32,000 nucleotides of DNA from positions 86,476 to 118,475 of the forward strand of contig CP144769.1 in assembly GCA_036689235.1 (NCBI GenBank). The letters run 5' to 3'. The stretch comes from Candidatus Saccharimonadota bacterium. Lineage in GTDB: Bacteria; Pseudomonadota; Gammaproteobacteria; Enterobacterales; Enterobacteriaceae. The first letter of the stretch is position 1, and each line of letters begins with the position of its first letter. The notes under the pieces were generated by a model, which worked only from the letters and a program-made list of their open reading frames with translations, did no database searches and had not been told where the DNA came from. A program made the position numbers and the translations under genes. Shown piece by piece: positions 29,101-32,000 of this stretch.

Positions 29101-29512
29101 TTTAAAATAAAAAATAAAAAAATAAAAATAAATTACATTTATATTGTTAAATATAAAATATATTTTATATTATTTATTTTTTTTTTAATTATATTTTTAA
29201 ATTTTTATATATTTAATGTTATTTATTTTATTATTATATATATATATATTTATTAATTATATTAAATTATAATTAATTTTAAATAAATTATTATTTAATT
29301 ATATTATAATTTAATAATATATATATAATTTATTTTAATAATTTATTAAATAATTTGTTTATTATTAATTTTAATGAGTATTAAATTAATTATATTTATA
29401 TTATTATTTTTTTTTAAAAATTATATTTATAATTTAAAATTATTATTTAATTTATATTTATATATTAAAAATTAAATATAATTAAATTATTATTTTATAT
29501 GGAGTTTTTTTT

Positions 29513-30508
29513 ATGACTATTAGAGTAGGTATAAATGGTTTTAGTAAAATTGGTAGATTAATATTTTATAATTCTCAATATAGAAAAAATATTAAAGTAG
29601 TAGTTATTAATGATTTAATTGATATTAATGATGTTATTCGTTTACTAAAAGTTGATTTTATTAATGATAAAAAATTTAATAATAGTATAAAAATTATAGA
29701 TAATAATTTATTTATAAATAATAATAAAATTTATTTTACTTCTTATAGTAAACCTAATGATATTAAATGAAGTAAATTTAATGTTGATATTGTAATAGAA
29801 TCTACTGGTTTATTTTTAACTAAAAATTTATCTTATGGACATATTTTATCTGGAGCTAAATATGTAATTATGACTAGTTTACCTAATGATGATACACCTA
29901 TATTTGTAATGGGAATTAATAATCATAATTATAATGGTCAAAATATAATATCTAATGCTTCTCCTATTATTAATTGTTTAGCTCCTATAGTTAAAGTTAT
30001 TAATGATAATTTTGAAATTACTGAATCTTTTATAACTAATATATATTCATCTATTTATAATAAAAAAATAACTAGTAATCATTCATTAAAGAATTTATAT
30101 ACTTATAAAAGTATTGTTCCTGTATTTGATAAATCTATTAATTTTTTAAATTATATAATTCCAGATTTAAAAAATAAAATTATTGGTATGTCTTTAAAAA
30201 TATCATTTTTAAATATTTCACTTATAGATTTTACTGCTAAATTAAATTCTAATGTTACTTATGATGAAATATGTTCTTGTATGGAAGAAGCTTCTAAAAC
30301 TTATTTACGTGGAATTTTAGGTGTTATTTATGATAATAATTTAATTTTTAATAATTTATATAATAAAAAATTAGTTTCTATTTTTGATGCTAAATCTGTT
30401 TTAATATTAAATAATAATTTTATTAAATTTATATCATGATATAATAATGAAATAGCTTATTCTGAAAAAATTTTAGATTTATTATCTTATATATATTATT
30501 ATAATTAA
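29513..30508 (+). CDS. gapA: Glyceraldehyde-3-phosphate dehydrogenase homologue (GapA-like), 331 aa, intact ORF but catalytic Cys and His substituted
   Basis: The sequence shows 'MTIRVGINGFSKIGRLIF', 'VVVINDL', 'IVIESTGLFLT' and the C-terminal 'SWYNNEIAYSEKILDLLSYI' (W encoded by TGA at 30437). The active-site box reads 'SNASPIINCLAP' (29950-29985) instead of 'SNASCTTNCLAP'. The 'TTVHA' segment reads 'TNIYS'. Confidence 0.85.
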
Positions 30509-30514
30509 ATTTAT

Positions 30515-30559
30515 ATACTAATTTGAATTATTTATTTTTTTTAAATAATTCATTAGTAT
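30515..30559. terminator. Stem-loop between convergent gapA and the protelomerase-like gene; candidate bidirectional rho-independent terminator
   Basis: 30515-30522 pairs with 30552-30559 (8 bp) and 30525-30533 pairs with 30543-30551 (9 bp), with a 2-nt bulge between them. The loop is A+T8. The arms contain exactly two G/C positions each, and these pair with one another (C30518-G30556, G30525-C30551). Confidence 0.5.
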
Positions 30560-30562
30560 TTA

Positions 30563-32000
30563 TTATTCTATTATTTTTTTTTTAATTATTTTATATCTTC
30601 CATTTATTTTTTTTTGATTAATATATTTTGATATGTATTTTATATATTTTTTTATTAATATGGTATTGAATCCAAATTTTCTTAAAATATAATTATTTAT
30701 TAATGTATTATCATTATTAATAAGAATTTTTTTTGTTATTTCATGTATTCTATATGCATTTTTTCTTTTTATTATTTTATGTATTTTTTTATCTAGATTT
30801 AATATTTTTTTAAATCTTTTATTTTTTTTTATTTTGGGTTTTCATTTTTTTTCAAAATTTTTTAATTTAAATTGTTTATAATATATTTGACTATTTATAT
30901 TTTTATGTCCTAATATTTTATAAAAAAACATGTCTTCATCGTATTTTTTTCATTTTTTATCTTTTTTAAATCATTTTTTAAAACATATACGACTATATAT
31001 AGATCTAGTATCTTTATAAGTTCTTTTTTTATTTTGAAAAAATAATTTTGATCATCTATTAAATGGATTTGATAAATAATTACTTATTTGATAATTTTTT
31101 GATAAATATTTATTTTTTCTTTTATTTATCATATATATTATTTTTTTTAGTATTTTACTTTTTCTTAATTTTTTTATTTTTTTTAAAAATAATTTTGAAT
31201 TACATAATAAATATATTTTATATTTTTTTTTTTTATTATTATTTTTTGCTTGTCCTTTAAATTGTATTTTATTTTTTTTATTTATTAATTTAAATTTTCC
31301 TGTTTTAATTATTTCTATCATTCTTCTTCCAGATACTGCAGATAATGCAAATGATAATATTGATATTTTTTTTATATTATTAATTTTAAAATTATTATAT
31401 AATATATTATATATTTCTTTTATATAATTTTTATAATTTACTATAATTGTATTACTTTTTTTTTTTTTTATTTTATCATAAGATTTTTTTTTTGAAATTA
31501 AAAGTTTTCTTTTTTCTACTTTTAAATAAAATAATATTTCATGATTTATTTTTATGTTTTTTATTTTTTTCTTTAATTTTTTACCTTGTTGAATTTTATT
31601 TATTATATATTTATTTGAACTATATCATTTTTGATTTATAAAATTTTTTAATTCTTTTTTTCATTCTGGAAAAATTTTTATTGAATTTTTTATTATTTTT
31701 AAATTATTTTTTGTTGAATCTATTTTTATTTTATTAATTTTTTTTATTAAATTATTAATTAATTCTAATTTTAAATTTAATTTTCTTAATTTTATTTTTA
31801 TAATATTTATATTATTTATTTTATCTATAAAATTTATTTCTTTTTTATAATATGGAAAATTTTTTTTAATATAATTTATATTTTTTTTAAAACTATGATG
31901 TTTAATATTAATAAATTGTTTTCTTGATCTTGATATATATGTTATATAACTATTTATTGATAATTTTTTTTTCTTTAATTTTTTTTTAAAAATTAATGCT
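30563..32000 (-). CDS. Protelomerase / telomere resolvase (TelN/TelK-like tyrosine-recombinase-fold enzyme); 5' end lies beyond the window (about 479 codons visible)
   Basis: I retranslated the minus frame from 32000 down to TAA at 30563-30565. It is open with 6 TGA=Trp. Visible motifs are '...NSYITYISRSRKQFINIKHHSFKKNINYIKKNFPYY', 'IFPEWKKEL', 'NKIQQGKKL..KINHEILFYL', 'VNYKNYIKEIYNIL', 'FALSAVSGRRMIEIIKTGKF', 'IQFKGQAKNNNKKKKYKIYLLCNSKLF', 'SNPFNRWSKLFF', 'RTYKDTRSIYSRICF', 'KKWKKYDEDMFFYKILGHKNINSQIYYKQFKLKNF' and 'YRIHEITKKIL'. These parallel, in order, my recollection of N15 TelN: 'NAYMSRARKRF..LHHSFDKNINKL', 'VNHEVLYHL', 'AAVSGRRMIEIM', 'FSGQAKK', 'FNPWVKSFF', 'VYKDSRAIYARIAY' and 'DEDVFFMEILGHDDENTQLHYKQFKL'. 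Confidence 0.8.

Follow-up and report, generated by a model that had tools for sequence, protein, structure and literature searches.

Locus and reading frame

The window, a stretch of 32,000 nucleotides spanning positions 86,476–118,475 of contig CP144769.1 in assembly GCA_036689235.1 (genome G000), carries on its forward strand, at 29513–30508, a single-copy gapA orthologue of 331 codons under translation table 4. Its product, P0001, is a pseudo-glyceraldehyde-3-phosphate dehydrogenase (pseudo-GAPDH). The active site of the predicted protein is lost, glycolysis around it has been dismantled, and the frame is still intact. P0001 is probably a pseudoenzyme under relaxed but real purifying selection, in which the GAPDH fold is kept for a non-glycolytic role.

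The frame is open throughout, with two in-frame TGA codons at 29768–29770 (Trp86) and 30437–30439 (Trp309). Translation and HMMER alignment place both on Trp columns conserved in GapA, the second being the Trp of S-W-Y, in line with an earlier note on this DNA that had described a 331-codon frame interrupted only by two TGA=Trp codons, one of them at 'SWY'. The G+C content of the window is 11–19%, and TGA=Trp is required by all of its long open reading frames (ORFs).

The G000 assembly measures 245,433 bp with a G+C content of 14.5%, in two contigs of 239.9 kb and 5.6 kb. The 44 other species-level genomes of the genus have main contigs of 212–326 kb, consist of one to three contigs and in most cases read TGA as Trp. 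According to preprint 10.1101/2023.12.12.571295, Candidatus Stammera capleta is a pectinolytic symbiont that lives in the foregut of hispine and tortoise beetles, with genomes of 216–340 kb that use code 4 and one or two plasmids of 2.5–9 kb. Since the assembly and the genus features agree with this published description, G000 is very probably Candidatus Stammera capleta. In six early-branching genomes (G002, G003, G019, G021, G057 and G060), gapA, pgk and eno are free of in-frame TGA codons, while the tpiA of G019 has one; the standard code may still be in use in these lineages. A related-locus search of genome contigs returned nothing but an unrelated Bacteroidota symbiont.

Family membership and loss of the active site

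P0001 matches both GAPDH domains in Pfam, Gp_dh_N (PF00044) with 90.1 bits (cut-off 31.7) and Gp_dh_C (PF02800) with 88.3 bits (cut-off 24.4), and falls far short of the GapA equivalog cut-offs of NCBIfam (277 vs 662 bits for NF011954; 225.8 vs 367.2 bits for TIGR01534). It is the best match to gapA in all 44 other genus genomes and, by best matches, fold, single copy and neighbours, its orthologue; with one Gp_dh_N match in the whole G000 genome, no second GAPDH was found. Assignment to Epd (TIGR01532/PRK13535) was rejected, as the scores (173.6 vs 539 and 160.6 vs 530.6 bits) are below those for GapA and the Cys and His are missing here too, and the ArsJ-associated GAPDH was rejected for lower scores and the same missing pair.

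Compared to E. coli-type GapA (PRK15425/NF011954, TIGR01534; 1gad, 4mvj, 1s7c), P0001 is about 38–40% identical over the full length and has the same two domains, but it lacks Cys149, His176, Thr150, Thr179, the Arg195 loop, Thr208-Gly209-Ala210 and Arg231, has the second Gly of its NAD (nicotinamide adenine dinucleotide) loop replaced and is without the surrounding pathway. Residue columns were fixed by a full-length HMMER alignment to the E. coli-type GAPDH structures 4p8r and 4lsm, which contains a single four-residue gap. The active-site box lies in a gap-free region, where P0001 SNASPIINCLAP stands against GAPDH SNASCTTNCLAP, giving Cys149 to Pro and Thr150 to Ile. This box reads TCT CCT ATT ATT AAT TGT, or S-P-I-I-N-C in place of S-C-T-T-N-C, at 29960–29977; the earlier note had given the right residues and set them one base too early (29959–29976). 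The nucleophile Cys149 is replaced by Pro (CCT, 29963–29965), and the catalytic His176, the general base, by Tyr (TAT, 30044–30046; TNIYSS vs TTVHAT), so the description of 'TTVHA' as 'TNIYS' is borne out by the alignment. Both codons are the same in X99, the sister of G000. The downstream Cys of 'NC' pairs with the ordinary Cys153, and no shift of register restores the nucleophile.

The phosphate sites Ps and Pi have been lost as well. Besides Thr150, Thr179 has become Ile, Arg195 is deleted, Thr208-Gly209 reads Asp-Lys, and Arg231 of the substrate phosphate site is replaced by Lys (AAA, 30197–30199; LKIS vs FRVP). The S-loop and phosphate-site segment (30056–30157, approximately residues 182–215) is degenerate, with a four-codon deletion of the Arg195 region that leaves the RGGR/Arg195 loop four residues shorter than in E. 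coli-type GAPDH, and with 'DKSINF' for 'STGAAN'. In the alignment, PVFDKSINF is found opposite PSSTGAAKA, so the stretch previously called unrecognisable indeed is ('FDKSINF' for 'STGAAKA'). In the NAD loop, AGT AAA at 29543–29548 turns GFGRIG into GFSKIG, the second Gly of GxGxxG being Ser (AGT, 29543–29545). The Rossmann signature, which had been noted as well kept, is so only in part (GFGRIGR to GFSKIGR). The Gly-to-Ser change is seen in G000 only, while the Arg-to-Lys change (Arg10Lys) is common to G000 and X99. The NAD fingerprint of P0001 reads G-F-S-K-I-G, and Asp32 and Asn313 are retained.

P0001 has been stripped of its nucleophile and general base, of both phosphate sites and of part of the NAD loop, and its residues show that the predicted protein cannot act as a glyceraldehyde-3-phosphate dehydrogenase. 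The parent fold, in contrast to the active site, is modelled with confidence as being kept. An AlphaFold2 model built on a 55-sequence alignment reaches a predicted local distance difference test (pLDDT) score of 87.4 and a predicted template modelling (pTM) score of 0.86, with pLDDT below 50 only at residues 183–197, the shortened S-loop, and Foldseek aligns it to E. coli GapA (1gad, 4mvj) with a template modelling (TM) score of 0.93. Among the matches of the model are the engineered Cys149Ser and Cys149Ala variants of Geobacillus stearothermophilus GAPDH (1nq5, 1npt), in which the nucleophile is lost and the fold intact. Those variants are laboratory point changes with all other sites kept, whereas the erosion of P0001 is natural, affects many sites and is evolutionarily old.

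Dismantled glycolysis

Profile searches of G000 found none of PGK, TIM, class II aldolase, gpmA, gpmI, PFK or PGI. The glycolytic enzymes that are left are enolase (eno, C1:134331-135170) and pyruvate kinase (pyk, C1:131786-132760), both intact and both outside the window. Loss of this glycolytic step by the organism was one of the options raised before, and the genome shows it: pgi, pfkA, fbaA, tpiA, pgk, gpmA and gpmI are all absent, no second GAPDH takes over, and of the lower-glycolysis genes proposed for a check, pgk and tpiA are absent and eno is present. Transketolase, which could also supply glyceraldehyde-3-phosphate, is missing in each of the five Stammera genomes tested, G000 included. 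The completeness estimate of G000 is 85%, similar to that of its small-genome relatives, and its gene absences coincide with whole-clade patterns and are therefore not holes in the assembly. The intact relatives G041 and G044 have pfkA, gpmA, pgk, tpiA and fbaA; pgi is present in G041, the only intact relative tested for it. Upper glycolysis has been lost gene by gene, differently between lineages. A full-length pgi is found in G054 and G009, none in G000, and G014 holds a 15.8-bit remnant with an internal TAA (G014:C1:207266-207442).

No alpha or beta subunit of the F1 ATP (adenosine triphosphate) synthase was found in G000 either, the sole ATP-synt_ab match being Rho (C1:226737-227348). With only enolase and pyruvate kinase left and the F1 subunits not found, the strain would depend on late glycolytic intermediates or ATP from its host: its ATP may come only from host-supplied 2-phosphoglycerate or phosphoenolpyruvate through pyruvate kinase, or from import. 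Stammera has been described as living on glycolysis and fermentation (PMC11059521), and according to the comparative preprint 10.1101/2023.12.12.571295, energy-metabolism genes vary among the smallest Stammera genomes. The present finding revises the metabolic picture for part of Stammera, and annotating the P0001 ORF as 'type I glyceraldehyde-3-phosphate dehydrogenase' would overstate the metabolism of this strain.

Erosion of GapA across the genus

GapA was extracted from all 45 genus genomes, each of which has a gapA match, and pyk and eno of these genomes served as controls. Exactly eight of the 45 genomes are without both fbaA and tpiA (G000, G004, G014, G013, G007, G009, G017 and G054), and according to the motif table the phosphate-site loops of GapA are eroded in all eight. 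In the fbaA/tpiA-positive genomes, all 36 complete GapA proteins have intact motifs (GINGFGRIGR, S-C-T-T-N-C, His176, RGGR, (S/T)TGAA and FRVP or FRIP). The gapA of G015, which is also fbaA/tpiA-positive, stops after about residue 130 at a run of N (L053, G015:C1:110834-116300), an assembly gap, and was left out of this comparison.

Among the eroded copies, Cys149 has become Pro in G000, Ser in G004, G013 and G007, and Asn in G014, and is kept in G009, G017 and G054. His176 is replaced by Tyr in G000, G014 and G007 and by Arg in G013, and is kept in G004, G009, G017 and G054. Both residues are replaced in the G013 motif, SSTSSTTNCLAT. By parsimony, the Cys codon went from TGT through AGT to AAT in the G004/G014 lineage, and from TGT to TCT separately in G013, G007 and G000/X99, the last then moving on to CCT. 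The near-isosteric Ser was thus reached each time Cys149 was lost, and the natural Cys149Ser, carried by four Stammera lineages, parallels the engineered one of G. stearothermophilus. Every replacement that is shared goes from G/C to A/T (Pro to Ser, Thr to Asn, Asp to Asn, Gly209 to Ser to Asn, and Ala210 to Ser in four lineages), which is expected from mutation bias after constraint has been lifted.

In G007, gapA is without a start codon and lacks its first 90 codons, and with them the entire NAD fingerprint (L054, G007:C1:117000-123500). What is left, 244 codons, is still an open frame with 84% identity to G009. The other six relatives (G004, G014, G013, G009, G017 and G054) are full length and have the same orthologue in the same genomic position with the same type of erosion as G000. 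Unlike G000, they keep the NAD loop, and three of them retain both Cys and His.

The fate of pgk varies within the eight: G000, G004 and G013 have lost it by deletion, G017 holds a shredded remnant, and in G014, G007, G009 and G054 it is intact. An apparently intact pgk is thus seen in four genomes despite the loss of fbaA and tpiA, and in two of these, G014 and G007, GapA is without its nucleophile. Of the intact-pgk genomes tested for gpmA, G009 lacks it and G014 has it.

A tree of pyk and eno, ((G004,G014),(G044,(G013,((G007,G009),(G000,(G017,G054)))))), was obtained with LG+G and equally with a site-heterogeneous model. In this tree G044, fully intact and fbaA/tpiA-positive, nests among the eroded genomes. 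A single origin of the eight fbaA/tpiA-negative genomes was rejected when monophyly was forced (approximately unbiased (AU) test, p = 0.008). Since the eight do not form one clade, upper glycolysis was, on the pyk and eno evidence, probably lost twice and GapA eroded twice.

Divergence was measured against G044, the closest intact relative, with the active site taken as 55 residues (148–152, 174–215 and 229–236). These residues are the most conserved part of intact GapA proteins, differing from G044 by 9–11% in the intact G016 and G050, and by 35–80% in eroded copies. The NAD-binding domain differs by 19% in the two intact proteins and by 18–32% in eroded ones, and the rest of the catalytic domain by 21–23% and 19–41%, respectively, the 41% being X99; without X99, the eroded genomes differ by 18–35% over these two regions. 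As measured by residue divergence, the erosion of GapA is confined to the active site, with the remainder diverging at near-normal rates. The 36 intact proteins have 125 invariant columns, of which 15–16 are changed in G009, G017 and G054 and 21–34 in G004, G013 and G014, and in these six relatives nearly all changed columns fall within residues 124–242.

Selection in the eroded relatives

The ratio of non-synonymous to synonymous rates (dN/dS, omega) was estimated with a custom maximum-likelihood branch model (MG94xHKY, F3x4, code 4), in which support is given as twice the difference in log-likelihood (2dlnL). Intact branches have a gapA omega of 0.048 and fbaA/tpiA-negative ones of 0.14, with omega=1 rejected for the latter (2dlnL = 261). 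On the terminal branches of G004 and G014, which by parsimony follow the loss of the Cys, omega is 0.096 and omega=1 is again rejected (2dlnL = 119). These branches are very long, at about 2.5–3.2 neutral substitutions per codon. On the same two branches pyk has an omega of 0.085 and eno of 0.082, with 0.08–0.25 over the same lineages. By this comparison of codon models, the presumably dead GapA of these relatives is conserved as strongly as working enzymes. Over all seven eroded relatives other than G000, omega for gapA lies at 0.10–0.18. Omega also rises in the controls on fbaA/tpiA-negative branches, from 0.077 to 0.169 in pyk (2dlnL = 21) and from 0.086 to 0.114 in eno, which points to selection having relaxed throughout the clade, or to a compositional shift, and not only to an effect on gapA.

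Selection and frame survival in G000 and X99

The sister X99 encodes a GapA of 325 amino acids (P0002) that is 75–77% identical to P0001 and was recovered as identical Logan contigs from the runs SRR23946981 and SRR23946969. X99 is closer to G000 than any of the 44 other genus genomes, and the two share Cys149Pro, Thr150Ile, His176Tyr, Arg231Lys, Arg10Lys, the loop deletion and 'KSINF'. Because the inactivating codons are common to both, the inactivation is older than their split, and neither frame has been interrupted since then.

In the G000+X99 sub-clade omega is 0.455, and omega=1 is rejected (2dlnL = 9.9, p = 0.0016). The stem of the pair has an omega of 0.40 (omega=1: 2dlnL = 5.2), the two terminal branches together 0.50 (2dlnL = 4.6), and the G000 terminal branch alone 0.43, which significantly exceeds the value for the other eroded branches (2dlnL = 14.0) and lies below 1 (2dlnL = 6.8, p = 0.009). 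In the direct comparison of G000 with X99, gapA shows 13 synonymous and 73 non-synonymous codon differences, with an omega of 0.37 (omega=1: 2dlnL = 8.2, p = 0.004). The flanking rnhA has six synonymous and nine non-synonymous differences (omega 0.07), and the flanking protelomerase gene 17 and 12 (omega 0.05). By these models, purifying selection is shown for the eroded gapA, strong in the relatives and relaxed but significant in G000 and X99.

Next to the substitution rates, the survival of the frames is informative. In the fitted mutation model about 3% of neutral gapA substitutions lead to TAA or TAG, so that the nonsense hazard is about 10.5 for each unit of neutral branch length. The post-split branches measure 0.30 for G000 and 0.41 for X99, or 0.16 and 0.22 with omega forced to 1. 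Under neutrality four to seven stops would be expected since the split and none is observed, so the neutral probability that both frames are open is 0.0006–0.02, with frameshifts uncounted. The indels on the G000 and X99 branches are all in frame (+1, -4 and +1 codons against G017, with a further -4 and -1 in X99). How fast unselected genes break in this clade is shown by the pgk pseudogene of G017 (L101, G017:C1:179600-181900), which on a comparable branch of at most 0.38 has acquired at least three frameshifts, at least four stops and a deletion of about 65 codons, while its sister G054 has an intact pgk frame of 403 codons (L102).

A retained GAPDH fold and the competing explanations

As the frame is unbroken, omega is below 1, and the catalytic residues and the pathway have been lost, P0001 is best read as a pseudoenzyme that is kept for a non-catalytic role. 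GapA would have had a second, non-glycolytic role before glycolysis was lost, and this role would have become its only one once the pathway had been dismantled. It may be structural or a matter of binding, and in most relatives it probably still uses the NAD-binding domain. Given that this domain is almost untouched in the six full-length relatives, the role probably runs through the Rossmann domain or the overall fold. G000 and X99 are the most eroded of the series and may be on the way to losing the gene.

Several observations weigh against a retained function in this lineage. G000 has the most eroded GapA of all, with 47 of the 125 invariant columns changed, including G11S, R12K and R19Y in the NAD domain. 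Selection in the G000+X99 sub-clade is far more relaxed than in the other eroded copies (omega 0.46 vs 0.14, p = 5e-7), constraint in the full-length relatives being roughly three-fold stronger (0.10–0.18 vs 0.46). For single branches the rejection of omega=1 is modest (p = 0.009 to 0.03) and model-dependent, and the X99 control genes are two partial neighbours only, rnhA and the protelomerase gene. Nei-Gojobori estimates for G000 gapA pairs come to about 0.9–1.1, with 0.5–0.6 for pyk and 0.3 for eno. Finally, the truncated, startless gapA of G007 indicates that the gene can be dispensable. The maximum-likelihood values were preferred over those of Nei-Gojobori because the latter method undercounts synonymous change at third positions that are nearly all A or T.

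The main rival for G000 is that gapA is a young pseudogene, neutral in the G000/X99 lineage since glycolysis was dismantled and so far free of stops and frameshifts by chance. The heavy erosion reaching into the NAD loop, the deletion of the pathway partner pgk, the Nei-Gojobori omega of about 1, a maximum-likelihood omega three times that of the other eroded copies and the proof from G007 that truncation can happen all speak for it. On the other side, the inactivating codons predate the split from X99 and both lineages have remained open, omega=1 is rejected in the sub-clade and in the pairwise comparison, the expected nonsense hits did not occur, the indels kept the frame, the ribosome-binding motif is retained, and a true pseudogene, the G017 pgk, was shredded in comparable time. 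We therefore consider neutral survival unlikely. The earlier note had left a choice between a freshly inactivated, still unbroken gene and a pseudoenzyme with a non-catalytic role; the neutral chance of about 0.0006–0.02 that both frames are open disfavours the former, and the shared substitutions, the open frames and the omega below 1 give better support to the latter. Its proposed comparison of orthologues by dN/dS, in which a value near 1 with broken relatives would have marked a plain pseudogene, leaves the finding standing, with omega=1 rejected for G000 and X99 and the X99 frame open.

A second rival grants the selection and denies the function: if gapA is strongly and constitutively expressed, selection might act only on foldability, against a costly truncated or misfolded product. 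This would fit a constraint that extends across all of the fold except the active site, the near-isosteric Ser that replaces Cys in four lineages, the retained expression signals and the few regulators in Stammera (preprint 10.1101/2023.12.12.571295). A promoter-killing mutation or a deletion would end such a cost at once, however, and fbaA, tpiA, pfkA and pgk have been cleanly deleted in the same genomes, while gapA was retained over the very long G004 and G014 branches and in two independent lineages. This explanation appears rather improbable to us.

It is very improbable that P0001 is a neofunctionalised enzyme, with new chemistry on a scaffold that needs neither the Cys/His pair nor the phosphate sites. 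The NAD-binding domain is almost unchanged in the six eroded relatives, and G017, G054 and G009, with Cys and His retained, may have some dehydrogenase activity. The replacements, on the other hand, differ by lineage (Pro, Ser or Asn at 149; Tyr, Arg or His at 176) and follow the G/C-to-A/T bias without converging on a new catalytic set, and G000 has a damaged NAD loop and a shortened S-loop that appears disordered in the model. An artefact (errors in sequencing or assembly, the wrong genetic code, or a functional GAPDH encoded elsewhere) has nothing counted in its favour and can be practically dismissed, as the sequencing errors once suspected at the active-site box are excluded by identical codons, TCT CCT ATT ATT AAT TGT and TAT, in two independent public runs of the sister, both TGA codons fall on conserved Trp columns and the genome has one Gp_dh_N match.

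The pseudoenzyme reading of P0001 can be taken further. It may be, though we would lean slightly against it, that a GapA function that is essential and independent of catalysis exists in Enterobacterales-derived symbionts, with natural separation-of-function alleles having arisen at least two independent times. In such a course of events fbaA, tpiA and pfkA would be deleted, the active site would decay along the mutation bias, and the fold would remain selected like pyk and eno. If so, the series from the near-intact G054 through the Cys-to-Ser proteins of G004 and G013 to G000, with Cys-to-Pro, His-to-Tyr and a deleted loop, maps the parts that the hidden function needs.

GAPDH is well known for moonlighting, with non-glycolytic binding and surface roles in bacteria and eukaryotes. 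Since the enzyme is essential, such roles are not easily told apart from catalysis. According to a review (PMC8256278), every glycolytic enzyme moonlights in some organism. What is proposed for P0001 resembles moonlighting GAPDH in that a GAPDH fold has a non-glycolytic task; the cases known so far are catalytically active and have a further role besides, whereas in P0001 evolution has removed catalysis and presumably left the second role only. P0001 is also unusual as a pseudoenzyme, since it derives from a single-copy housekeeping orthologue after the loss of its pathway and not from a duplicate. A literature search returned no description of a Stammera GAPDH, nor of any GAPDH pseudoenzyme, and gapA is not mentioned in the accessible part of the supplement to the Stammera transcriptome preprint (10.1101/2023.12.12.571295). 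The gapA genes of this genus form a graded natural series in which catalysis and pathway are lost and purifying selection persists, in genomes of only some 200 genes in which useless ones can be seen to fall apart. If P0001 is made, as is presumed here, the series is a ready tool for finding the non-glycolytic role of GAPDH, and the search is already narrowed by what is conserved, namely the NAD domain and the part of the fold that lies outside the active site.

Flanking signals and neighbouring genes

A Shine-Dalgarno-like GGAG, read in the sequence, lies 8 nt 5' of the ATG of gapA (29501–29504, forward strand). Of 14 gapA copies examined, 11 have a purine-rich GGAG, GAGG or AGGA motif 4–8 nt before the start, among them X99 and every eroded copy shown, in DNA that is otherwise almost free of G; G044, G041 and G011 have weaker G-rich runs only (GGGG, GGTGA). 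Downstream, an AT-rich hairpin of 18 bp (7 + 11 pairs with a 2-nt bulge) at 30515–30559 separates gapA from the convergent protelomerase gene. Its RNA folds with -13.3 kcal/mol (z = -5.3), and X99 carries the same hairpin downstream of gapA (-13.8 kcal/mol, z = -6.0). It is a probable terminator shared by both genes. The GGAG motif and the hairpin, kept in both G000 and X99, are indirect signs that the protein may be made.

Upstream of gapA lie secA, dnaX, htpG, recA, alaS, a porin gene, asnS, dnaQ and rnhA, and downstream the convergent protelomerase-like gene; the order rnhA - gapA - protelomerase is common to G000 and X99. The convergent gene (30563–31999, reverse strand) encodes, by its appearance, a protein of the tyrosine-recombinase or protelomerase type. 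In seven relatives (G054, G053, G016, G023, G024, G055 and G041), gapA is located 190–1700 nt from the start of the main contig.

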